From a virus (Duplodnaviria > Heunggongvirae > Uroviricota > Caudoviricetes): a stretch of 64,000 nt of DNA. The translations under genes were made by a program, and so were the position numbers. Every line of letters begins with the position of its first letter. The first letter of the stretch is position 1. The stretch is from the IMG/VR virus record IMGVR_UViG_3300011008_000020, one strand, 5' to 3'. Under the pieces are notes generated by a model. It had not been told where the DNA came from, did no database searches, and saw nothing but the letters and a program-made list of their open reading frames with translations. This document shows positions 12,541 to 63,707 of this stretch, one piece after another.

Positions 12541-13914
12541 TTATTTCGCCTCGCCGTCTTGGAACATGTTGAGGACTTCCTCGGACAGTTCGTAGCGTTC
12601 CATGTTGGACATCGCCTTCTTGGCGTCGCCCTTGAGGAACACAAGGACGTGCTGGTGGCACGTGACGACTTTCCTACCGCCGTCAAACTGCCGGGCCGCA
12701 CGCAGGGCGGCGGTCGCCACCGCGTTCAGCAGCACCATGTTGTTGTACCAGTGAAGCCCGGCGTCCTCGAACGCCTTGATGGTGTCCCCGACGAAGTTGC
12801 GGTAGTTGCCCTCCTTGTCGCGTACCTCGCCGACGACGATGGCGGCGAAGGCGTTGGGCTTGAGCATGTCCACGGAGCGGCGGATAATCTCGCGGTAGGT
12901 ACGCACGAAGTTGGCGTAGTCCATGTTGGAGATGTCACGCGGGTCGTCGGAATACTTTTCGAGGTCGGCGTAGGGCGGACAGGTCATCAGCATGTCGAAG
13001 CCGCGCTCCTTGATGATCTTGTCGATCTCGGCGCTGTCGCCCACCGTCCACACCGGCGCGTCCATCGCCTCGCCATAGAAGTTCCGCTGGCCGTCCAGCA
13101 GCTTCCAGTTTTCCTCGTTGGCGTCGATCTGCTCCTGACGCAGGTCGTTTCCGAAGTAGCGCCTGCCGAGCATGGCGGTGACGATGCCGCGCACGCTGCC
13201 GCCTGCGAACGGGTCGATCACCTTGCCGCCCTTGGGCGAGAACCATGCGACGAGGATTTCCGCCAGCACTGGGTCGAAGATGCTCGTGCCGGTGAGCGTG
13301 GTGTTCTTAGTGGAGTTCTTGGCGAGCGCGTTCAGGCCGTTGCCGAGCAGACCTTCCTCGCGGCCTTCGCCGGATTTCAGGATGGTGTGCCACGTGGCCT
13401 TGCTGGATTGCCATTTTCCGTTGCGTGCGTCCAGCACAGAGAAGGGCGGGTAGATGTAGCGCTCATAGAGGTCTTCGGCGTTCTTGTGGGCTTCGTTGAA
13501 TTTCAGTTCCTCGTCCTCGCCGTTCAGAGCCTCGTCGATCTCGTCGAGGAAGTCCGTGTCGAAGTCGAAGTCTCCGAAGTCGAGGTCGGCCATCTCCTGC
13601 GCCAGCTTCTCAAAATCCCAAGAGGCCAGCTCGTTCGTCTTGTTGTCCGCGATGCGGTATTCGCGGTTCTCCTTCTCGGACAGCTCGCTCACCAGAACCG
13701 GCACCGTCTCAAGGCCGAGTTCCTTCGCGGCCTCGTACCGCGTGTGGCCTACCACGATCACGCCGTCCTTGTCCACGACAATCGGCTGCTTGAATCCGTA
13801 CTTGCGGATGCTGGTCGCAACGTCGCGGATGGCGCTCTGGTTGTGGCGCGGGTTGTTGGGGTAGGGCGTGATGGTGTCGATGGCCCTCATTTCGATCTTC
13901 GGATTCTGGCTCAC
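12541..13914 (-). CDS. ParB-like nuclease domain fused to DNA N4/N6 methyltransferase
   Basis: N-terminal ParB-N motif (VVGHTRYEAAKELG). Motif I DPFAGGSVRG and motif IV TCPPY. Confidence 0.8.
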   Translation of the reverse strand: MSQNPKIEMRAIDTITPYPNNPRHNQSAIRDVATSIRKYGFKQPIVVDKDGVIVVGHTRYEAAKELGLETVPVLVSELSEKENREYRIADNKTNELASWDFEKLAQEMADLDFGDFDFDTDFLDEIDEALNGEDEELKFNEAHKNAEDLYERYIYPPFSVLDARNGKWQSSKATWHTILKSGEGREEGLLGNGLNALAKNSTKNTTLTGTSIFDPVLAEILVAWFSPKGGKVIDPFAGGSVRGIVTAMLGRRYFGNDLRQEQIDANEENWKLLDGQRNFYGEAMDAPVWTVGDSAEIDKIIKERGFDMLMTCPPYADLEKYSDDPRDISNMDYANFVRTYREIIRRSVDMLKPNAFAAIVVGEVRDKEGNYRNFVGDTIKAFEDAGLHWYNNMVLLNAVATAALRAARQFDGGRKVVTCHQHVLVFLKGDAKKAMSNMERYELSEEVLNMFQDGEAK

Positions 13915-21935: not shown

Positions 21936-21964
21936 ATTATAGCTTCTTTTAGTGGTATTGTCAA
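21936..21964 (-). promoter_or_regulatory. consensus sigma-A promoter TTGACA-17-TATAAT (family member 1)
   Basis: Minus strand reads TTGACAATACCACTAAAAGAAGCTATAATATTCCAC; shares flanks with four other copies. Confidence 0.65.
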
Positions 21965-22320: not shown

Positions 22321-22575
22321 CCATTCAACATTTTCCAACTGCATTTTATACGCTTTTCATCGCATATCCCGCGTTATCAGCGGTATAAACCGGCGAAACT
22401 GCGTATATTCATGCGGCTTCAAAAACGTGTGGTTGCCAAGAAGTTGCCAAGCCCATACCCGACCCTGAACTCCGGCGAAAACAGCATCGCTTTAGCGCTC
22501 CATGCGCTATGTTTCCAATGGTGTCGGCACAACATCGTCTATGCATTGGTATTATACCGCCTGCTGAACGTGTTG

Positions 22576-23082
22576 TCAATGGTTCCCCTCTCGCTCGATG
22601 GTCATCTGCGCAATCGGGCACACTTTCCGTTCCGGGAAGTCATAAGCAAAGAGCGCCTCGATGTTCTTGCGAACCGGGCAGCGTTTTGATTCCTTCTCCG
22701 TCTTCTCGCACATCAGGCAGTTCATGTCGATCACCTGATCTTCCATCCACTCAAGGGCGTCGTTCGGGACGTATGTGAACATCTGCTTGTGTGCGCCGGT
22801 GTAATCCGGCGTGACGTTGATTTCAACGCGGGTGTGGTCGATCTCCTGCCTGATCTGTTGCAGCTTCTTCGGCGGCACCGTCGCAAGCACCTTGTCGAGA
22901 AGCCGGTCGGCCAGCGCGACAATCAGCCTGGCATGGCACCAGCCCATGTTGATGCCGCGCAGGCGCTTCTCAAGGTAGCCCAGTTCCGTTTCAAATGTCG
23001 ATACGACACCCATCAACGCTCGGAGGCCGTAATACTCTCGCCCGGACAGGTTTGTGCGTTCGGATGGCTGTTCATTGCTCAT
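22576..23082 (-). CDS. hypothetical protein with C-terminal Cys cluster
   Basis: RBS GGGAGG then MSNEQPSERT; CLMCEK...KRCPVRK. Confidence 0.5.
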   Translation of the reverse strand: MSNEQPSERTNLSGREYYGLRALMGVVSTFETELGYLEKRLRGINMGWCHARLIVALADRLLDKVLATVPPKKLQQIRQEIDHTRVEINVTPDYTGAHKQMFTYVPNDALEWMEDQVIDMNCLMCEKTEKESKRCPVRKNIEALFAYDFPERKVCPIAQMTIEREGNH

Positions 23083-37772: not shown

Positions 37773-38372
37773 TTACTTGGAGATTCGCGGGGTTACAACG
37801 GCGGAGAAAACGTAGTGGTAGTTGCCCTCGCGGTGATGGTTGTACTTGTATGGCTTGTGGAAGATTTCGATGCTGCCCCAGAGGACGCCGTTGGCGTCGC
37901 ACCACGAGGAAACATAGTCGCTCGCCAGTCGCGCCCGCATGAACTCGTCGGAGCGGTCAAGAGCCTCGGCCATCGCGTGCTCGGCGGCGTCGCCATCGTA
38001 GTCGGCGTGCATCACGCAGAAGCGATAGATGGTCGCTGCCTGCGGCTCGATGTGCGTGAAGCCCGTCTTTCCGGCTTCCTTGGCGGCGTGGGTATCTGCC
38101 ACCATCTGCTGGACTTCGGCCTCGGTGGGTTCGGTGTCGGCCTCGTCGGCCTTAATCCAGATGTTCACCGTGTCGCCGTTGCTCAGATTCAGCTCCAAGC
38201 GGTCGCCCAGATCGCAGATGTAGTCGTACCAGTGGCCGTCAGCGGTGCTGCTGTACACCGGGTAGCCAGCGCGGGAGCTGCGGTCGCCGTCCCGCTCATA
38301 GTCGGTGGGGAAGATTTCGTTGGCCTTGTTCCAAGCCTCCGAGATGCTCCTGACGGTGAAGTGCTTCGTCAT
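37773..38372 (-). CDS. hypothetical protein
   Basis: 199 aa ORF; first gene downstream of promoter 38423-38451. Confidence 0.5.
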   Translation of the reverse strand: MTKHFTVRSISEAWNKANEIFPTDYERDGDRSSRAGYPVYSSTADGHWYDYICDLGDRLELNLSNGDTVNIWIKADEADTEPTEAEVQQMVADTHAAKEAGKTGFTHIEPQAATIYRFCVMHADYDGDAAEHAMAEALDRSDEFMRARLASDYVSSWCDANGVLWGSIEIFHKPYKYNHHREGNYHYVFSAVVTPRISK

Positions 38373-38422
38373 GGTGAAGTTCCTCCTTTGTGAGTGTTTC
38401 CAGTGGTTGCTTTCTGTGGAAT

Positions 38423-38451
38423 ATTATAGCCGCTAATGGTGTCATTGTCAA
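38423..38451 (-). promoter_or_regulatory. consensus sigma-A promoter TTGACA-17-TATAAT (family member 2)
   Basis: Minus strand reads TTGACAATGACACCATTAGCGGCTATAATATTCCAC. Confidence 0.7.
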
Positions 38452-38529
38452 GAGGGAAAATGCCTCTTTTGGAAACTATTTTCGGAATTTCCCGCTTCTT
38501 ATGGTGGTTTTTTCTTGTTGACACTCCTC

Positions 38530-38558
38530 GGCGTGCCTGATATAATGGTGTCAATCCG
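38530..38558 (+). promoter_or_regulatory. plus-strand sigma-A promoter TTGACA-17-TATAAT
   Basis: TTGACACTCCTCGGCGTGCCTGATATAAT followed by GGTGTCAAT. Confidence 0.6.
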
Positions 38559-38565
38559 ATTTGCA

Positions 38566-38645
38566 AGGTCGGAGGGAGTGCGCTTGCGCACGGAAGCGGC
38601 CCACATGGCGTTGTGGGCCGCTTCTCTTTCAGATGTTCCTATTCA
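38566..38645 (+). ncRNA. candidate small RNA (promoter to terminator, about 75 nt)
   Basis: Between plus-strand promoter 38530-38558 and terminator hairpin GAAGCGGCCCAC/GTGGGCCGCTTC with TCTCTTTC tail. Also internal hairpin GTGCGCTTGCGCAC. No ORF. Confidence 0.4.
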
Positions 38646-39019
38646 GCTTTCGGCTTTGCCTCTCTTTTCGCCTGCTCATACTTGAAGAAGGCGTCGATGT
38701 CGAACCACTTGTCCTTGATGATGTGGCCGATCTTGGTGGTGACGCCGCCGAGGCCGGGGTCAACGATACGGATGTACTGGCCGGGCAACTTCTCCCAGTC
38801 CTCAACGCCCACCGTGTCCATGATGTGCATCATCGCAAGCAAGCCGCTCCCGTCAGCGTCGAAATGATCTGCTCCGAGGTAGCCGTGGCCCATGACGTAC
38901 CCGCCAAAGCCGCCAGCGCCTTGACCTTCAAAAAAGACGTGAAACGTCAGGACGCCATGCTCACGCATCGTGATGCGGGTGTCCGTGATCTTGACGTTTA
39001 TGATTCGCTCACTGTTCAT
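38639..39019 (-). CDS. hypothetical protein
   Basis: 126 aa ORF. Confidence 0.5.
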   Translation of the reverse strand: MNSERIINVKITDTRITMREHGVLTFHVFFEGQGAGGFGGYVMGHGYLGADHFDADGSGLLAMMHIMDTVGVEDWEKLPGQYIRIVDPGLGGVTTKIGHIIKDKWFDIDAFFKYEQAKREAKPKAE

Positions 39020-48953: not shown

Positions 48954-49040
48954 ATGGATTCACCCTCTTTCACCCCCACGCCCGTCGCCGGGCGCAGGGG
49001 AGTGTTCGTCTATGACACCGTTAGATGCCGTTTGTGGAAT

Positions 49041-49069
49041 ATTATAGCCGCTAACGGTGTCATTGTCAA
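49041..49069 (-). promoter_or_regulatory. consensus sigma-A promoter TTGACA-17-TATAAT (family member 3)
   Basis: Minus strand reads TTGACAATGACACCGTTAGCGGCTATAATATTCCAC. Confidence 0.7.
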
Positions 49070-49101: not shown

Positions 49102-52100
49102 TTATTCCATCACGGCGTGACTTCCGGCGTCGTCCTTCGTCACGGTGATGTTCTGGGGGAACATGGCCTTCATCGCCTCGTCGTGGGTGATTGCCATGAT
49201 GCACATATCGGTGTAGCGCCGCCGGATGGCTTCAAGGGCCTCGACGTAGGCCCGCACGCCGTCACTGTCAAGGAATGGCGGCTCGTCAAGGAACAGGAAG
49301 CCGAGCTGCACGCCGAGCTTGTTCTTCATCACCTCTGCAAGGGCAAGGATGACGCTCAATGCCGCCTTGACGCGCTCGCCGCCAGAGCGGGACAGGTAGG
49401 GCAAGCGCCCGGTGTCCGCGTCGTTGATGACGACGTCCAGCGTGGTGACCTCCTTCTTGTTGTTGCTCTTGAGCACCTTCTCTGTCACCAGCTCCACGCT
49501 CATGCGGCCCTGCGACATCTGGCCGAGGATATTGGAGGCCGTGGCCTCGAAGATCGGGATGATCGACCTCGTGATGTTGTGCGGAATGCCGTTGGAACCG
49601 AAGGCTTGCTTGAGTATCTCGTACTGCGCCGCCGTATAGGCTTTGTCGTCGATCTGCTTGGCGACTTCGGCCACGTGAGCCTGCAAGACTTTCGTTCGCT
49701 CGATCTCCGCCTCGATGGAGGCCTTGACGCCGACCACGCGGTCTCGCTCGGCCTGTTCGCTGGCGATCTGCTTCTTGATCTCGATGATCTTGGCCGTGAT
49801 AGCGTCCTTCTCGGCGTCCGTCGCGGCTTCACCGGCGAGATTGGCTTCGAGTTCGCTGATGTGCTTCTCGTTGAACTCAATCGCCCGCTGGTACTCGTCA
49901 ATGCGTTCCTGCGCGGCGTCCCTGCGGTCTTTCGCGCCAACAAGCTGCTGTTCCTTCTCGATGCACGGCTTGTACTGCGTGATCGCGTTGACGGCGGCGG
50001 TGTATGCTTCATAGACTTCGGCATAACCGGCGATGTCGGCGTTCACCTTTTCCAGCTCGCTTTTCTTGGTCTCGATCTCGTAGGTGAGGGTGTTGTCGCG
50101 CTCTGTGACTTCCTTGCGACTGGCTTCGAGCCGGGTCAGTTCTTCTTCGTAGGTGGTGATCTGTGCAAGCATCACGGACGCAGAAGCCAGTTCCTTGAGC
50201 CGGGCACGCATCTGGGCGATGGCGGCGGCATCCACGGTGTTGATGGCGTCTCGCCGGGCGATGGCCGCATTCACGTCGTCCGTCAGCTTCGCAAACTCGA
50301 CGCGAGCCGCTTCGGTGGCTTCCGCGTGCTTCTTTTCCAGCTCCGGCAGGGCGTCACGTGCCGCCACGGCGTCCGCGAGGAAGCGGCAGGTGGCGGTCGC
50401 GGCAATCGGGCAACCGCTGTCATCCAGCATGGCGACGCGCTTCTTCTTGCTTTCGATCTCGGTCATGCGCTCACGGAAGTCTGCCCGCGCACTGTTTCGC
50501 AAATCGGAGACCTTGGCTTGGAGTTCGAGGACGGCGCTGTTTGCTGCGTTCCACTTGGCCCTGTTCTCCTCGTCTGCCTCAAGTGCCGCCGTGATGCTGT
50601 CGTGCTCCCGCTGCTGGCGCTCGTACTCTGCGCGGCGAGCGATGGACGCACGAAGCTGTTCCATCCGGGTGTCAAGCTCCTGCGCCCTCTTGGAGTTCTG
50701 GGCGCGGCTGTCCTCACCGGTGCGGATTGCGTTTTCGATGCTGGCACGCTGGGTCTGCATGACGGTGAGGGTGTTCACCTTGTCCTGCAAGGCGTCCCGC
50801 TCAGCCTGCGCCTTGCGGCAGCGTTCCGCGCCGTCAAGGATGTTGCTCTGGTCGTCGAGGATGGAGGCATAGAGCGCCTTGTCCATCTCGGCGCTGAGTT
50901 TCTGCGCCTGCGCACGCCCAATAGCTTCGCGCATTTCGCCGATCTGGCGGCGATACATCGCATAGACCTCCGAGGACGTGTTCAGCTTTGCAAGCTCCCC
51001 GTTCAGGTGTTCGAGTTCGGCGTTCAGGAGTTTGAGTTCGGTGTCACACCCGTCAATGCCAATGACGCAACCGGCGCGGCGATTGCCGAGGACATCGAGG
51101 TCTCCGCACTGCTGCGAGAGTTCATCCTTCTTGGCCTGCAGCGTCCGCACCTCCCGGTTGGCCTCCGTGGCCTTTTCGACGGCCTCGTCGGCCATCTGGT
51201 CGTAGATACCAAGACCGAGGATGTCGGAAAGAATCTGCATGCGCTCCTCTTTGCCCGCTTGCAGGAAAAGCCCATACTGGTCTTGCATGATCAGTGCGCA
51301 GGCGCGAAGGGTCTGGCCGTCGATGCCGATCACGCGCACGATGGCATCCTGCGTGTCGCGCATCTTCTCGCACGAGCGGTCAACCCACTCGCCGTCAACC
51401 TTCTCGGACAGGTTCAAGGTCGCTTTGCCGCTCTTGACGCGGGTGCGTACCACGCGCCACAGCTTGTCGCCGACGCGGAAGGTGAAGTGAATCGCGCCGG
51501 AGCGTGCGCTCTCGTCGTTGCAAATCCAGCCGGTCAGGTCGCCCTCTCGCGGTTCCTCGTAGAGCGCGTCGAAGATCGCGTCCATGAACAGGCTGCTCTT
51601 GCCGACGCCGTTCTGGCCGTTGATGGTCGCAAAGCGCACATCATCGAAGGAGAATGTTTCGTCGCGGTAGTTGCGGTAGTTGGTGACGCTGATCTCGACC
51701 GGCACGAGGACGCCGCTCGCCTTGTCGGCGTGGCCTTCCGCGAGCACGCGGTCAATGATGGAGCGGCCCTTCTCAAGGACGTTTGCCACGGTCTCGTCGT
51801 CGATGACGGTGGCGTTGGTGGCGAGGTACTCCCGCAGGTTCTCCACGGGGTCGTTCTCGGCGGTCAGCTCGGTGCGGTTCACCGTCACCGTGATGTTGCG
51901 CGGGGTGATCTCCTGCACCCAGAACGCTCCCATGTCCATGATCGCCCGTTCGAGCTGCGGACGGTTGAGGGCCTTCTGGTTCTCGTCGGTGCAATCGTAG
52001 ATGACGCGGACGATGGCGTCCTTCACGTCCTGCTGCGGCAGGATGCCGGTCAGGTTGAAGTCGTGGATGCCGTCGTCATCCATGCGGATGGTCTTGAACT

Positions 52101-52953
52101 TGCGCGGGCTGTCAAGCTCCACAAAGTGGTGGTTGCTTACACTCCACCCTTTGTTCCAATCGCCATCCAGCGTATGGACATAGAAGCCGCGCTCCTGTCC
52201 CTCGTCGTTGAAGTTGAGCCGGTTGATCGCGCCGCTGTAGAAGGCCCTCTCGCCGAGGGGCTGCGGCCTGTGGATGTGGCCGAAGCAGCACAGGTCATAG
52301 TTTGCCGTCATCAGCGTCTTGTGGGAAATGATCGGCTCGAACTGGCTGAACATCATGGTCTGGCCGCTCTCGGTGTTCGCACCCTCGACGGTGTAGTGCC
52401 CGACCAGCACAGAAGGATTGCCACGCTGGCACTGGGCCCTCATGCCGACGATCATCTGCTCAAGCGCTTCGGTGAACGCCTGCGTCTCCTGCTCACGGTC
52501 TGCGCCGGGGTTCTGGCTGCGCCAGTAGCCCTTGTCGAAGCCGGGCAAGGCGCAGAGGCTGACGGCGGTGACGTTGGTGTCGATGGAGTAGTGGCCCGGC
52601 TCGGTGATGATCTTGACGTTGCCATTGTTCTCGAAATGGGTCTTGAGCATCTGGTAGTGCTGCTCGCCGTCGTGGTTGGGTGTGCCGCGCACGATCACGA
52701 CCGGCGCGATGTCGGCGAGGCGCTCGATGCGCTGGATGGCGTCGTTGACCTCGGAGATTCCGCGCTCGCTCCACGTCTTGGCGGCGTGGAACAGGTCACC
52801 GGCGTGGATGATCAGATCGGGATTGATCGTCGCCACCTTGTCGATGAACTCGTCGAAGCAGCGCAAGGTGTCCTCGGCGCGGGCGTTCTTCCCGGCCACC
52901 ACCGGCCCCGGAAAGGGGCCGATGTGGGTGTCAGCAAAATGAACGATCTTCAT
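49102..52953 (-). CDS. fused Mre11/SbcD-like phosphoesterase plus Rad50/SbcC-like SMC ATPase (1283 aa)
   Basis: N-terminal MKIVHFADTHIG...DLIIHAGDLFH (calcineurin-like). Walker A GQNGVGKSS, long coiled coil, signature LSRSGGE, Walker B LFLDEPP. Confidence 0.75.
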   Translation of the reverse strand: MKIVHFADTHIGPFPGPVVAGKNARAEDTLRCFDEFIDKVATINPDLIIHAGDLFHAAKTWSERGISEVNDAIQRIERLADIAPVVIVRGTPNHDGEQHYQMLKTHFENNGNVKIITEPGHYSIDTNVTAVSLCALPGFDKGYWRSQNPGADREQETQAFTEALEQMIVGMRAQCQRGNPSVLVGHYTVEGANTESGQTMMFSQFEPIISHKTLMTANYDLCCFGHIHRPQPLGERAFYSGAINRLNFNDEGQERGFYVHTLDGDWNKGWSVSNHHFVELDSPRKFKTIRMDDDGIHDFNLTGILPQQDVKDAIVRVIYDCTDENQKALNRPQLERAIMDMGAFWVQEITPRNITVTVNRTELTAENDPVENLREYLATNATVIDDETVANVLEKGRSIIDRVLAEGHADKASGVLVPVEISVTNYRNYRDETFSFDDVRFATINGQNGVGKSSLFMDAIFDALYEEPREGDLTGWICNDESARSGAIHFTFRVGDKLWRVVRTRVKSGKATLNLSEKVDGEWVDRSCEKMRDTQDAIVRVIGIDGQTLRACALIMQDQYGLFLQAGKEERMQILSDILGLGIYDQMADEAVEKATEANREVRTLQAKKDELSQQCGDLDVLGNRRAGCVIGIDGCDTELKLLNAELEHLNGELAKLNTSSEVYAMYRRQIGEMREAIGRAQAQKLSAEMDKALYASILDDQSNILDGAERCRKAQAERDALQDKVNTLTVMQTQRASIENAIRTGEDSRAQNSKRAQELDTRMEQLRASIARRAEYERQQREHDSITAALEADEENRAKWNAANSAVLELQAKVSDLRNSARADFRERMTEIESKKKRVAMLDDSGCPIAATATCRFLADAVAARDALPELEKKHAEATEAARVEFAKLTDDVNAAIARRDAINTVDAAAIAQMRARLKELASASVMLAQITTYEEELTRLEASRKEVTERDNTLTYEIETKKSELEKVNADIAGYAEVYEAYTAAVNAITQYKPCIEKEQQLVGAKDRRDAAQERIDEYQRAIEFNEKHISELEANLAGEAATDAEKDAITAKIIEIKKQIASEQAERDRVVGVKASIEAEIERTKVLQAHVAEVAKQIDDKAYTAAQYEILKQAFGSNGIPHNITRSIIPIFEATASNILGQMSQGRMSVELVTEKVLKSNNKKEVTTLDVVINDADTGRLPYLSRSGGERVKAALSVILALAEVMKNKLGVQLGFLFLDEPPFLDSDGVRAYVEALEAIRRRYTDMCIMAITHDEAMKAMFPQNITVTKDDAGSHAVME

Positions 52954-54605: not shown

Positions 54606-54634
54606 ATTATAGGCGCTGTTAGAAACTTTGTCAA
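54606..54634 (-). promoter_or_regulatory. consensus sigma-A promoter TTGACA-17-TATAAT (family member 4)
   Basis: Minus strand reads TTGACAAAGTTTCTAACAGCGCCTATAATATTCCAC. Confidence 0.65.
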
Positions 54635-57861: not shown

Positions 57862-58338
57862 TTACAGGTTGTGCTTCTCGGCGTAGATTTGCAGGGCGTC
57901 AATGACAGCCTTGAGGCTTCCCAGCTTTTTCGCCACGTTCTGGAACGCAGTAACTTCATCCGGCCTCACGCGGCCATCCGACGCGATCTGCAGCAGGGCC
58001 TTTGCCACGTCGCCCACGCCCTGCGCTTCGTTGAACAGCTTGATGGCCGTCCGCTCGAAGCACTCGTCCTGTACCGGGTTCACGCGGCCACAGCCGATAG
58101 GGCAGATCATGGCGCAGTAACTCGTCAGCAGTTCCGGCGTGTTGTAGAGCTGCGCCATGCGCCGTGCGTTGATGTTGCTCGGCAGCACCTCGTCACGTTC
58201 CCACCGCCCGATGGTCTCCGGCGAGGAGACTTCCAGCGCCTCCGCCGCACCCTGCTGGGTCGCCAGCTTCTCGTTGTAGGCCGCAGCGTTCAAACGCGCT
58301 TCTCGGAGTTGTTCTCCAAAGGTTTTTCCAACATTCAA
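57862..58338 (-). CDS. XRE-family HTH regulator with C-terminal domain
   Basis: N-terminal FGEQLREARLNAA...LATQQGAAEALEVSSPETIGRWERDEVLPS. Confidence 0.6.
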   Translation of the reverse strand: MNVGKTFGEQLREARLNAAAYNEKLATQQGAAEALEVSSPETIGRWERDEVLPSNINARRMAQLYNTPELLTSYCAMICPIGCGRVNPVQDECFERTAIKLFNEAQGVGDVAKALLQIASDGRVRPDEVTAFQNVAKKLGSLKAVIDALQIYAEKHNL

Positions 58339-58351
58339 AATCCTTCACCTC

Positions 58352-58609
58352 TCACTCGGTCTGTGCTACAATAACTTCACGGTGCTTGAATGCGTCGCGT
58401 TCAACGTCGAAGAACTCGACGGGGAATCCCAGCAGCGCGGAGAGCCGCCCGGCGACCTTCTTTGAAGGGTTGCGCTTGCCATACTCGATGTTCTGGTAAT
58501 GGTCAAGGCTGATGCCGACCGCCTGCGCCGCTTGGGTCTGGGTCATGTGCGCACCGTTTCGGAGGGCGCGAAGCCAAACCCGCTTGCTTGATTCGGTCAA
58601 TAAAATGTC
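58352..58609 (-). CDS. Cro-like XRE-family repressor (TTG start)
   Basis: RBS AAGGGGGTGA; LRALRNGAHMTQTQAAQAVGISLDHYQNIEYGKRNPS is an HTH_XRE motif. Confidence 0.65.
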   Translation of the reverse strand, partial: DILLTESSKRVWLRALRNGAHMTQTQAAQAVGISLDHYQNIEYGKRNPSKKVAGRLSALLGFPVEFFDVERDAFKHREVIVAQTE

Positions 58610-58740
58610 ACCCCCTTGTCGTTGCACTCGGCTGAAATTGACGGTATAATGGAAGTTGGGTTTTTAGCACTGATTCGCAATCTTGCGCGGTTTGCGCCGT
58701 TTGCGTGTTCCGTGGAATACCGTCAAGCTGTTATGGGGAC

Positions 58741-58769
58741 AGTATAATCCACAAATGTAGTTTTGTCAA
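58741..58769 (-). promoter_or_regulatory. cro-type promoter TTGACA-17-TATACT with CAAATGTAG operator repeats
   Basis: CAAATGTAG at 58752-58760 and 58774-58782, in the divergent region between the cro-like and cI-like genes. Confidence 0.6.
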
Positions 58770-60182: not shown

Positions 60183-60440
60183 TCAGCGTTCGGCCAGCGT
60201 TTTCCTGCCGAACTCCCGGATGTAGGGGTTGCCGGGCACTCTCGGCTCCTCGGTGCTTTCAAAGAGGCTGTCCTCCGTTTCGTGCAGCGCCATCTTGATC
60301 GCCAGCACGATTCGGTAGGACGGGTTCTTGGCGCCGCACTCGATTTGCGAGTAGTAGCTGCGAGACACTCCCAGTGTGAGCGCGATGTCGCTCTGCGTCA
60401 AACCGGCGCGGCGTCGCGCATCCCTCAATTTGGTTCTCAT
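60183..60440 (-). CDS. XRE-family HTH regulator
   Basis: RBS GGGAGGTGATACA then MRTKLRDARRRAGLTQSDIALTLGVSRSYYSQIECGAKNPS. Confidence 0.65.
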   Translation of the reverse strand: MRTKLRDARRRAGLTQSDIALTLGVSRSYYSQIECGAKNPSYRIVLAIKMALHETEDSLFESTEEPRVPGNPYIREFGRKTLAER

Positions 60441-60480: not shown

Positions 60481-60510
60481 ATTATAGACGCAGATGGTGT
60501 CATCTGTCAA
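60481..60510 (-). promoter_or_regulatory. consensus sigma-A promoter TTGACA-18-TATAAT (family member 5) with palindromic operator
   Basis: Minus strand reads TTGACAGATGACACCATCTGCGTCTATAAT; palindrome CAGATGGTGTCATCTG at 60491-60506. Confidence 0.65.
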
Positions 60511-60529
60511 CAGGAAGGAGTTTTGCATT

Positions 60530-60955
60530 ATGTCAATTTTCGGTGAGAGGCTGTATGAGGCCCGCAGGCGGCAGCGGATTACTCAAGGCGATCTGGCAGA
60601 TCGCGCAGGCGTCACCCGGTCGGCCATCGGTGGGTATGAGAAGATGGGAAAGGATGCCAGCTATGAAGTATTGGTGAAGATCGCGCAGGCACTCGGCGTG
60701 ACGACTGACTACCTGCTCGGCATGGACGACAATGCTGGCTGGCATAAGCGCACCGGCGTCGCCGAGAAGTTCTACGATCTTGAGCTTTACTATGACCGTG
60801 CGCCAGACGAGCAGAAAGCCACCATAGACAGCCTGCTCGTGGAGGTGGACAAGTTGCTCGCCTTCTTCCTCGCGTCGCCGGACACGGCGCGGCTGGGCCA
60901 TCTGCGTGACCTCCTCGCGGACGCCCGCAGGCTCATGGGTGATGGCAATGAGTGA
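60530..60955 (+). CDS. XRE-family HTH regulator with C-terminal domain
   Basis: RBS GGAAGGAG then MSIFGERLYEARRRQRITQGDLADRAGVTRSAIGGYE. Confidence 0.65.
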   Translation: MSIFGERLYEARRRQRITQGDLADRAGVTRSAIGGYEKMGKDASYEVLVKIAQALGVTTDYLLGMDDNAGWHKRTGVAEKFYDLELYYDRAPDEQKATIDSLLVEVDKLLAFFLASPDTARLGHLRDLLADARRLMGDGNE

Positions 60956-62138
60956 GAACAAGCCGTTCGTCGTCTACGGCGACTATGGGCGCGACAGCGA
61001 GGGCAAGCGCATCCGAAAGAAGTTCACCGGCGTGGACGAGGTGGAGGCCCGGTTGAAGAAGCGGGAGTATGAGAAGGAACGCGCCATTGGCCTGCACAAG
61101 TACGCCGACACCATGACGGTGCGCCAGTGGACGGACATCTGGATGAACGCCTACCGCTCCGAGATCAAGGGCACGAACAAGGTCTCCTATGACACATACG
61201 TCGGGCGGCTGAACGCAGAGATCGGCCACATGAAGATCAAGGATGTGCAGAACATCCACCTGTACCGATGCTTGTTGACCATGAAAGGAATGTCGAAGTC
61301 GTCCCTCACAAAGTACCGCATGGTGATTCAGCAGGTATTCCGAAAGGCCCGGCAGAACAAGGTGCTCCCGGACGACCCAAGTGAAGACCTCGAACTGCCG
61401 AACGGCACCAGCGGGACGCACCGGGCGCTTGAGAAGTGGGAGATCGACCTGATCTTCGAGAATTGGCAGGTCTATAACAGCGGCCTATGGGTGATGATTA
61501 TGCTGCTGGCCGGGCTTCGGCGCGGCGAGCTGGTGGCCCTCGACTGGGACTACGTGGACATGAAGGAGCGCAACATCGTCGTCGAGCGTGCCGCCGAGAT
61601 CGTGACGAATCAGGCCGTCATCAAGGATTCCGCCAAGACAGAGGCCGGGACGAGGGCGCTGCCGATCTGCGACAAGCTGTTCGATGCGCTGTCCACCGTG
61701 CCGGAGGCGGAGCGCAAGGGGCCGGTGTGCCACAGCAAGGGCGGCGTGCGCCTGACGCAATCCTCATATTCGTGGGGGATGCGCACCTTCAACCAAGCGA
61801 TGGAGCGGATTCTGAACGGCGAGCCGCCAATCCAGCAGGGACGCCGGAAGGATTGCGAGGACAAGAAGAAGGGCCAGAAGGAAAAGGAGGCGCAGGAGCG
61901 CAAGAGGTTTTCCATCCGTGGACACGATCTGCGGTTCACCTACGCGACCGCGCTCTACGACGCGGGGGTCGATGTCAAATCTGCCATGTACTACCTCGGC
62001 CACAGCGACATCCGCATGACAATGAGCCTATACACTCAGCTTTCAAAGGAACGCGAGAACCTGTCCCGCGCACAGGCGATCACCTTCCTCGACAACTGGC
62101 TGAAACCCAAGAACGACGACGAAAAAGACGAAGATTGA
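60948..62138 (+). CDS. int: tyrosine-type site-specific integrase
   Basis: Catalytic residues R (LRRGELVALDW), H-x-x-R (HDLRFTYA) and Y (SLYTQL); overlaps the upstream gene's stop. Confidence 0.9.
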   Translation: MSENKPFVVYGDYGRDSEGKRIRKKFTGVDEVEARLKKREYEKERAIGLHKYADTMTVRQWTDIWMNAYRSEIKGTNKVSYDTYVGRLNAEIGHMKIKDVQNIHLYRCLLTMKGMSKSSLTKYRMVIQQVFRKARQNKVLPDDPSEDLELPNGTSGTHRALEKWEIDLIFENWQVYNSGLWVMIMLLAGLRRGELVALDWDYVDMKERNIVVERAAEIVTNQAVIKDSAKTEAGTRALPICDKLFDALSTVPEAERKGPVCHSKGGVRLTQSSYSWGMRTFNQAMERILNGEPPIQQGRRKDCEDKKKGQKEKEAQERKRFSIRGHDLRFTYATALYDAGVDVKSAMYYLGHSDIRMTMSLYTQLSKERENLSRAQAITFLDNWLKPKNDDEKDED

Positions 62139-62169: not shown

Positions 62170-62202
62170 TGTAAAAATCCACTATTGGTGTCAATTTTCA
62201 TC

Positions 62203-62231
62203 TTGACAATGTTGCCATTAGTTGCTATAAT
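62203..62231 (+). promoter_or_regulatory. consensus sigma-A promoter TTGACA-17-TATAAT (plus-strand family member)
   Basis: CTTGACAATGTTGCCATTAGTTGCTATAATGG; TGGTGTCAAT motif at 62187-62196. Confidence 0.65.
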
Positions 62232-62264: not shown

Positions 62265-62777
62265 ATGAGCGCAGGCGACACGCGGCAGCAGATTCGAGCC
62301 ATGACGCTTGTCGCCCGGCAAGTACTCGGAGACGGCTTCGGCTATTACCTCACCCAGCGGCCACCCGCGCCCGGAGCGCATCCGAATGACGCGCACGCCG
62401 TCGTCTCGTTGGACGCGAAGATGTGGCATGACGGAATCTGTCAGGAGATTTGGGGCTGGGTTTGCTACCGGCGACAGCTCACCAACGCGGAGGTCGAAGA
62501 ATACGAGCTGCTCCCGGACGAGGACAACCCCGTGAGGTATCAACAATATGGCATCGTGCTGTATGAGCGTGTGAAGGACGCGGACGGGCGCTCAAGGATG
62601 CGGAAGACGCCGGTGACGGAAGGCGGCAGCAGAGGCGAGCGGTTCATCACCAGCTACAAGGGCAAGGCCTTCGCATTGATCGACTTCCTGAACAAGAAGG
62701 CGGGGGCGAAGCTGAATCTAAAGGTCGTCAAGCTGCCGCAGAATGGAACAACGGACGCAGCACCGACACGACAATGA
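62265..62777 (+). CDS. hypothetical protein (moron between int and the element boundary)
   Basis: RBS GAAGGGAGAC then MSAGDTRQQ; 170 aa. Confidence 0.55.
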   Translation: MSAGDTRQQIRAMTLVARQVLGDGFGYYLTQRPPAPGAHPNDAHAVVSLDAKMWHDGICQEIWGWVCYRRQLTNAEVEEYELLPDEDNPVRYQQYGIVLYERVKDADGRSRMRKTPVTEGGSRGERFITSYKGKAFALIDFLNKKAGAKLNLKVVKLPQNGTTDAAPTRQ

Positions 62778-63625: not shown

Positions 63626-63707
63626 GGGAATGTAGCGTAATTTGGTAACGCACACAGGCGGTGCACCTAACCTGCGGTTGTCGGTTCGAATCCGAACATT
63701 CCCACCA
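63626..63707 (+). other. tRNA-like element 2 (7-bp acceptor, D-arm, T-arm GGTTCGAATCC, ACCA; no canonical anticodon arm)
   Basis: GGGAATG/CATTCCC acceptor; D-stem GCGT/ACGC; variable-arm-like AACC-tgc-GGTT. Confidence 0.35.

Follow-up and report, generated by a model that had tools for sequence, protein, structure and literature searches.

What, if anything, is encoded in the gap between two co-directional operons in the early region of a temperate phage? The question is raised by a short, strongly structured, apparently non-coding stretch near 38.6 kb in the virus record IMGVR_UViG_3300011008_000020 (Caudoviricetes), of which one strand of 64,000 nucleotides was analysed here; this whole stretch is referred to below as the window. 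The evidence gives us high confidence that the gap holds a gene of its own whose product is a structured, ~80-nt non-coding RNA, i.e., a genuine small RNA (sRNA) gene. As to its role, our best explanation, in which our confidence is evenly poised, is that this ~80-nt sRNA gene acts on read-through early transcripts as a convergent antisense RNA or insulator, in the manner of the OOP RNA of phage lambda and the SraG RNA of Escherichia coli.

The extent of the gene can be predicted from its promoter and its putative terminator. The plus-strand promoter (Table 1) matches the consensus at 12 of 12 hexamer positions and has a TG extended -10 in addition. Exact copies of TTGACA-N17-TATAAT number seven in the window against 0.00 expected, and not a single copy was present in any of 100 shuffles. 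The host RNA polymerase, of the sigma-70/sigma-A type, should initiate at ~38553 on this extended -10 promoter; the predicted first nucleotide is A38553 or A38554, ~7 nt past the -10, and the predicted transcript reads AAUCCGAUUUGCAAGGUCGGAGGGAGUGCGCUUGCGCACGGAAGCGGCCCACAUGGCGUUGUGGGCCGCUUCUCUUUC. The minimum free energy of the 88-nt stretch was -44.8 kcal/mol (z = -4.3), and none of 200 shuffled sequences was as stable. No credible open reading frame (ORF) was found in the sRNA stretch, the plus-strand ORFs there being shadows of minus-strand genes. A small-peptide reading, in which GGAGG is combined with a TTG in the loop of the middle hairpin (H2), was also considered and rejected: start codons in this loop, present occasionally, are missing in four of ten variants, indels shift the frame, and the ORF would need to extend through the terminator.

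It is to be noted that an initial annotation of this DNA, made from the sequence alone, had already proposed a structured, non-coding sRNA unit running from promoter to terminator and free of ORFs, and this proposal is supported, the -35 and -10 hexamers and all three hairpins being kept at ten homologous prophage loci. Some of its particulars needed correction. The TTGACA-17-TATAAT promoter exists, 12 nt away from the coordinates then assigned to it (38530-38558). The two hairpins that it listed, GTGCGC-tt-GCGCAC and a long stem, are indeed present, but there are three in all, H1 having been overlooked, and the interval that it gave, starting at 38566, takes in H2 and H3 and leaves H1 partly outside. 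The long stem, given as 12 bp, has arms of 13 nt each (38593-38605 and 38612-38624) that are 100% complementary. Lastly, the folding and covariance check that it recommended across homologous prophages came out positive, with the z-score quoted above and all three hairpins kept in ten variants.

Table 1 Features of the sRNA locus and related features of the window. Identities are means over pairs of the ten module variants.
Feature	Coordinates	Strand	Mean pairwise identity	Remarks
sRNA promoter	38518-38546	+		TTGACA at 38518-23, 17-bp spacer, TGa-TATAAT with -10 at 38541-46
-35 of sRNA promoter		+	0.90	
Spacer of sRNA promoter		+	0.52	
-10 region of sRNA promoter		+	0.79	
Operator-like motif	38543..38555			TAATGGTGTCAAT, minus-strand reading ATTGACACCATTA; across -10/+1 of sRNA promoter
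Predicted sRNA	38553..38632	+		About 78-83 nt; start from -10 position, end from terminator tail
H1 hairpin	38555-38573	+		UCCGAUUU-GCA-AGGUCGGA; 6 conserved pairs, 8 in window; 2 nt past predicted start
Purine-rich single-stranded linker	38574..38577	+		With flanking bases GGAGGGAG, Shine-Dalgarno-like
H2 hairpin	38578-38591	+		GTGCGC-tt-GCGCAC; 5-bp stem, cap G(CUUG)C, G(UUUA)C in 4 variants
H3 hairpin, predicted intrinsic terminator	38592..38625	+		13-14 bp G+C-rich stem; loop UGGCGU at 38606-38611
Pyrimidine (U/C) terminator tail	38626..38632	+	0.38	Direct sequence reading
Divergent perfect consensus promoter of 199-aa operon	38451..38423	-	0.89	Most conserved segment of module; operator motif 38434-38446 in spacer
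Inter-promoter DNA			0.57	
First gene of downstream operon, 199 aa	37773..38372	-		Followed by N6_Mtase-like gene and HNH gene
Last gene of upstream operon, 126 aa	38639..39019	-		phrog_30930; soluble-looking, phage homologues; convergent with sRNA
Exact TTGACA-17-TATAAT promoters	54634..54606, 49069..49041, 38451..38423, 22579..22551, 21964..21936	-		
Exact TTGACA-17-TATAAT promoters	38518-38546, 62203-62231	+		
Integrase	60906-62138	+		

Support for a selected RNA came from its relatives. Ten distinct versions of the intergenic module were assembled (the window, L010, L011, L013, L014, L018, L019, L020, L029 and L090), using contigs with homologues of the 199-aa protein together with a metagenome scan with protein alignment, so that the family is known from about ten metagenomic prophage variants. 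Five elements, namely the minus promoter, the plus promoter, H1, H2 and H3, are kept in all ten. The hexamers of the plus promoter are conserved while the promoter spacer, the inter-promoter DNA and the tail drift (Table 1), as a working promoter and a selected transcript would be expected to show. With the caveat that the sample is small and that the consensus structure was derived from the same ten sequences as the covariation test, pairing is maintained in 98.0% of the cells of the ten-sequence alignment, and double changes, which amount to 18 cells, affect 11 of the 25 pairs. The observed values were not attained in any of 500 shuffles of the columns, and sliding the 3' partners by 1-3 columns brought pairing down to 38-50% and the double changes to 0-3. 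G·U cells number 25 across the variants as against three A·C cells, and the plus strand folds better than its complement in 10/10; the RNA was therefore assigned to the plus strand, and a structure on a minus-strand RNA was rejected on the same two counts.

These results also bear on the view that there is no RNA gene here at all. On that view H3 simply terminates the upstream operon, while the promoter and the other hairpins arose by chance or are what is left of a divergent repressor gene. A divergent helix-turn-helix (HTH) gene does indeed stand in the place of the sRNA in one related phage (L006). Nonetheless, the U-rich tail is found on the plus side only, the promoter hexamers are conserved where flanking DNA drifts, compensatory changes occur in all three helices, and chance would not be expected to produce a perfect consensus promoter; we would give this view next to no credence.

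Examined singly, the three hairpins differ in how they vary. H1 is paired in 100% of its cells, with G-C replaced by A-U at columns 6/18 in two variants and a strand-specific U·G pair in eight of the ten. H2 is likewise fully paired (100%); its pair 27/38 is found as five pair types (UA, AU, CG, GC and UG), and in all ten variants the bases at loop positions 31/34 vary together, being either C-G or U-A. The sequence G(CUUG)C is a stable RNA tetraloop in which the first and last loop bases (C and G) pair, and the covariation in the H2 loop fits such a CUUG tetraloop. A DNA palindrome or protein site was judged a less likely identity for H2 than an RNA hairpin, as the sequence varies while the pairing stays. 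In H3, 8 of the 14 pairs have changed on both sides, and the stems of L013 and L020 are essentially different. Its loop, UGGCGU, is retained in nine variants, including L020 despite the entirely different stem sequence of the latter. In L013 the loop (alignment columns 56-61) reads CGCCAU, nearly the reverse complement of UGGCGU, as if the top of the hairpin had been inverted. The H3 arms of the window are followed by TCTCTTTC at 38625-38632, and the tail is U/C-rich in all variants, yet of low identity. The linker, with an identity of 0.56, is purine-rich throughout (AGGGAG, AGAGAG, AUGGAG, AGUGGG, AGGUGG). A 5'-terminal hairpin and a Shine-Dalgarno-like sequence are 5' stabilisers described in Bacillus; H1 and the linker resemble these and probably act as 5' stabilisers of the sRNA, and H3 as its terminator and 3' stabiliser.

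We then asked whether the RNA belongs to a known family. When the whole window was searched with Rfam 15 at gathering thresholds, only the transfer RNA (tRNA) at 63626-63704 was matched; a permissive scan of 38350-38750 (E <= 10) returned hairpin-level noise, with a best score of 21.7 bits versus a threshold of 82, and the Rfam models for tRNA and transfer-messenger RNA had no match at the sRNA locus. A covariance model built from nine variants recovered 38553-38635 at 103 bits as the sole full-length match in the window, and it also matched L029, L031 and L035 as well as a truncated copy in L030. All copies were confined to the neighbourhood of close homologues of the 199-aa gene, and the model had no match in the loci of distant homologues. 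DNA searches of sequenced phages with 1.8-kb and 261-bp regions gave no match. In IMG/VR, two DNA patterns derived from the RNA had 0 matches, and the flanking proteins led to distant or truncated loci without the module; in GTDB genomes, no relative of the 126-aa protein was found. Four GTDB matches to a DNA pattern were set aside as chance, being in unrelated taxa and not recognised by the covariance model. Judged from these sequence comparisons, the sRNA very probably represents a new RNA family within a known kind, that of phage-encoded convergent antisense or insulator RNAs.

The distribution of the module follows that of the 199-aa gene. While the exact proteins of the window were found only on identical contigs, a homology search with the 199-aa protein retrieved graded homologues at 57-85% identity. 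Those that carry the module are at least 66% identical to the query, and four loci at 57-71% identity (L021, L023, L033 and L034) are without it. In two of these, L021 and L023, an ordinary minus-direction terminator is found at the same junction. In L006, the divergent gene in the place of the sRNA (2700-2990) is of the XRE family, and the homologue of the 199-aa gene there, 55% identical, thus heads a classical repressor/early-operon switch. A divergent consensus promoter was detected upstream of none of 20 more distant homologues. The 199-aa protein itself had no Pfam family at cutoff, no PHROG family and no PDB sequence match; its AlphaFold model, confident at a predicted local distance difference test (pLDDT) score of 86, had no PDB fold match and resembled only uncharacterised phage proteins in BFVD. 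Roughly its first 80-100 residues recur as a module in many gut-phage proteins (40-50% coverage, ~60% identity).

Which RNA, then, could the sRNA oppose? The initial annotation had placed it antisense to the leader of the operon that starts from the promoter at 38423-38451, and this proved to be incorrect. The two promoters face away from each other, a distance of 66 bp separating one -35 hexamer from the other, and the predicted starts lie ~137 bp from each other, one leftward at ~38416 and the other rightward at ~38553; the transcripts are therefore divergent and share no overlap, and the sRNA can have no antisense action on the leader of the 199-aa operon. By its position, the sRNA is antisense only to such RNA as would read through from the upstream operon, the last gene of which is convergent with it. 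The H3 hairpin is common to the end of the sRNA and the end of this gene. The minus-strand sequence that comes after H3 is CGUGCGCAAGC, without a U-tract, the U-rich tract being on the plus side only; a U-tract after H3 in the minus direction was found in none of the ten variants, and no other minus-direction terminator was detected between the end of the upstream gene and the next promoter.

The mechanism that we favour builds on this arrangement. Polymerases of the upstream operon probably read through the sRNA gene, because they meet no intrinsic terminator belonging to that operon on the way to the next promoter. The sRNA, being perfectly complementary, would pair with the read-through segment, probably starting at the conserved H3 loop. 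Between them, this pairing and the opposing transcription from a very strong promoter would cleave the read-through RNA or halt its synthesis. The upstream message would thereby be given its 3' end, and the 199-aa operon would be insulated and left under its own promoter. Taken alone, apart from the existence of the gene, this antisense/insulator mechanism is put forward tentatively, as possible rather than probable.

Some of the same evidence would also suit an insulator that works through transcription itself and yields the RNA as a by-product. The promoter firing head-on and the hairpin would then block polymerases from upstream or, in an alternative form, the divergent firing would aid the neighbouring promoter through local supercoiling. 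Two perfect promoters placed back to back at so short a distance, an upstream operon without its own terminator, and a plain terminator at the same junction in relatives that lack the module are all in keeping with this. Collision or supercoiling, however, needs neither H1 nor H2, and both are kept by plus-strand compensation with strand-specific G·U pairs, which makes such an insulator quite unlikely.

The favoured explanation has its own difficulties, and these should be stated together. The start and end of the RNA, the activity of its promoter and the upstream read-through are all predictions, and the family has been observed in only about ten metagenomic variants. The tail, UCUCUUUC, is a weak U-tract, with five U in eight positions but interrupted, and a consensus terminator scan did not list it. 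There is no coding overlap, since the RNA would end at ~38632, which leaves ~7 nt between it and the convergent stop codon (38639-38641); any antisense effect would therefore be limited to the untranslated read-through segment and would have no obvious pay-off. Furthermore, antisense pairing in cis does not by itself account for the persistence of UGGCGU in L020, where the stem is replaced, or for the care with which H2 is preserved.

These last features would be accommodated by a trans-acting or protein-binding early phage RNA, in which the H3 loop, the GGAG-type linker and the CUUG-capped H2 bind a messenger RNA of host or phage, or a protein; it might serve as a decoy for a nuclease or defence factor or as a translation regulator, and its position between two operons would be incidental. 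Here it counts that the UGGCGU loop is kept in L020 although the whole stem around it differs, and that H1 and H2 are upheld by compensatory changes, for which simple antisense pairing has no need. The neighbours, too, have the look of early accessory or anti-restriction genes, namely the N6_Mtase-like gene and the DarA_C genes, the latter in relatives and at 62265-62777 in the window. Nevertheless, no target emerged: the energies from a duplex scan over translation-start regions were uninformative, the complement of the loop, taken as an 8-mer, was found 7 times against 2.3 expected, which is not a significant enrichment as 2 of 100 shuffles reach 7, and the linker is only 0.56 identical. On balance, we consider a trans-acting role unlikely, although it is the most serious of the alternatives. 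A more specific form of it, a new class of trans-acting early-lytic RNA in a Firmicute rumen phage with a P1-like dispersed-operator regulon, using the UGGCGU loop and the CUUG hairpin to capture a factor, is slightly less likely again; the captured factor might be, for example, a nuclease, a defence protein or a ribosome-associated component, of host or phage origin, and the RNA would then have a part to play beyond the trimming of read-through RNA.

The convergent gene offers a further way to read the locus. The tail of the RNA abuts or overlaps the convergent stop codon in five of the ten variants, by its last few bases only. The gene itself differs by locus, being the 126-aa protein, a CxxCxxCC protein, a 60-aa protein or small hydrophobic peptides; as the identity of the upstream gene varies, the module is seen to belong with the promoter region of the 199-aa gene. 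At L014 (L014-L017), L018, L019 and L029, the convergent gene codes for a small, strongly hydrophobic peptide, e.g., ...FWAAFVLILILVLVCTLELLSCVG in L014, and such peptide genes are partly unannotated in the gene calls of the contigs. A peptide of this kind could be a membrane toxin or holin-like.

In Bacillus prophages, bsrG/SR4 and txpA/RatA are type I pairs, in which the antitoxin RNA overlaps the 3' end of the toxin gene. The sRNA might, by comparison, resemble a type I antitoxin and exert control over the convergent upstream gene by overlapping its 3' end. A Firmicute prophage setting, convergent transcription, a shared terminator region and, in the four relatives just named, a hydrophobic peptide opposite the RNA are what it has in common with SR4 and RatA. 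The likeness fails at the convergent gene, which is not conserved: in the window it codes for a soluble-looking 126-aa protein with phage homologues and nothing toxin-like, and other relatives carry the CxxCxxCC protein or a different small protein opposite the same RNA. In addition, coding-region overlap is nil, there is no long 3' untranslated region, and the window sRNA is much shorter than its Bacillus counterparts. An antitoxin role is thus very improbable.

The order of the elements on the plus strand, in which a strong promoter leads directly into two conserved hairpins and these into a rather weak terminator, suggested yet another reading, that the sRNA is the terminated leader of a long antisense transcript made only conditionally. 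H1 and H2 would here be put-type or nut-type elements that, under some condition, let the polymerase ignore H3 and transcribe antisense across the upstream early operon, thereby shutting it off; the short RNA of lambda PR'-tR' and StxS are precedents for promoter-proximal terminated RNAs in phages (PMC7547250). The lambda PR'-tR' 6S RNA and StxS are, however, defined by antiterminated genes downstream on the same strand, and none is found here: plus-strand genes are absent for more than 20 kb downstream, the plus-strand ORFs from 38.6 kb to about 59 kb being shadows with low G+C at third codon positions and none of them a credible gene. Likewise, no antiterminator gene was identified, and the RNA has no similarity to any Rfam antitermination RNA, so that a conditional leader, too, has very little probability.

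To return to the sRNA gene as we favour it, its promoter appears to be part of a larger network. The 13-mer operator-like motif that lies across its -10/+1 occurs 10 times in the window with at most two mismatches (1.19 expected), and the 10-mer GACACCRWTW occurs 7 times (0.62 expected). Besides the exact promoters in Table 1, near-consensus minus-strand promoters are found at 58769, 15695 and 14332. Four of the five perfect minus promoters (54634, 49069, 38451 and 21964) share TATAAT-ATTCCAC, and GACACC(A/G)(A/T)T is present in the spacer or at ~+10 to +25 of all five. The motif also occurs, as AGATGGTGTCATCT, in the 18-bp spacer of a consensus promoter at 60510..60481 (-), ahead of a cro-like HTH gene. 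In all, one operator-like motif is common to no fewer than eight consensus promoters of host type at dispersed sites in the phage, which is an unusual regulatory layout. Since RNA polymerase would be blocked from every one of these positions, the motif is most simply predicted to be a repressor operator. With its -10/+1 covered by the motif of the other early and switch promoters, the sRNA is predicted to be silent in the lysogen and to be expressed upon induction or infection; looking for it in lysogens, as was proposed earlier, would probably be misdirected.

The C1 repressor of phage P1 has many scattered operators, and the promoters of the window look like a dispersed-operator regulon with a similar logic of control, one short motif being found at many strong scattered promoters, that of the sRNA included. 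The analogy suggests that one repressor silences all of the motif-bearing promoters in the lysogen. It is to be noted that neither the motif (WAWYG-GTGT-CRWT) nor the candidate HTH_3 regulators, encoded at 60494-60955, 60183-60440, 58352-58627 and 57862-58338, have any relation to P1 C1 and its operators, and that the comparison concerns the regulation of the sRNA and not the RNA itself. At 49011-49064, two motif copies, ATGACACCGTTA and TAACGGTGTCAT, are arranged as an inverted repeat of 12 bp on either side of the -10 and start of the 49069 promoter, and this pair may be a looping or double operator. A replication origin or iterons was considered for the sRNA locus and rejected, as no repeats besides the operator pair were found in 38200-38800. 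The plus promoter at 62203-62231 lies just past the integrase gene and is preceded by an operator-like motif at 62183-62195; it stands ahead of 62265-62777, which encodes a 170-aa DarA_C (defence against restriction) protein, beside the tRNA attachment end. L021 to L024 likewise have DarA_C genes, which are separated from the 199-aa homologue by a few genes and lie on its downstream side.

Two well-described RNAs allow the proposed antisense or insulator role to be placed. OOP of phage lambda runs leftward from pO to tO, with a 52-base overlap with the 3' end of cII, and causes RNase III-dependent cleavage (PMC5869508 and its references 19, 20). The window sRNA resembles OOP in size (OOP is about 77-80 nt), in its location between two genes of a temperate-phage early region and against the early operon, and in its complementarity to a read-through early transcript; a promoter of its own and an intrinsic terminator opposite an early operon, another feature of OOP, are predicted at the level of sequence, all genes around it being on the minus strand. 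It differs in that it stops at or before the convergent stop codon, where OOP overlaps cII by 52 bases, in being back to back with a second perfect promoter, and in having three hairpins with a CUUG-capped middle one; there is no sequence or Rfam-level similarity between the two, and the hosts differ. SraG of E. coli is encoded on the opposite strand between rpsO and pnp, has a bidirectional terminator in common with rpsO, and acts through RNase III on polycistronic read-through and leader RNA (PMC5029454). The gap between co-directional genes, the opposite strand, and a predicted terminator hairpin that is also the end hairpin of the upstream gene are found in the window, although the U-rich tract next to this hairpin is on the plus side only. 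SraG, in contrast, is chromosomal and 216 nt in length, and it overlaps the pnp 5' leader and promoter P2, whereas the window sRNA has no overlap with the downstream 5' leader. The window sRNA lacks one defining feature of each class.

The window as a whole is most of a large temperate prophage, integrated next to the tRNA gene at 63626-63704. HTH_3 regulators occur in either orientation at 60.2-60.9 kb, genes of the early region and of DNA metabolism run on the minus strand from 58.7 kb down (SbcCD-like, DnaC-like loader and dCTP deaminase), and terminase, portal, protease and capsid genes occupy 3.8-12 kb; the sRNA locus lies ~22 kb into the minus-strand early region. Shine-Dalgarno and sigma-A features, together with the rumen or gut sources of the metagenomes, suggest a Firmicute host. 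Two further genes may be mentioned for their domain composition, both on the minus strand: a 1283-aa protein (49102-52953) that matches SbcC-like and SbcD-like phage families and is an apparent fusion, and a 457-aa protein (12541-13914), just upstream of the terminase genes, in which a ParB-like domain is fused to a DNA methyltransferase.

To our knowledge, few phage-encoded sRNAs have been described outside the phages of E. coli, and almost none from phages of anaerobic gut or rumen Firmicutes. The unit presented here is compact and supported by covariation, and its start, end, strand and regulation are clearly predicted, which makes it directly testable. Should the sRNA be only a trimmer of read-through transcripts, it would be a modest addition to the class of OOP and SraG. 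If the wider picture is true, it would show how a prophage of this kind silences many strong promoters in the lysogen and keeps its early operons apart without ordinary terminators.

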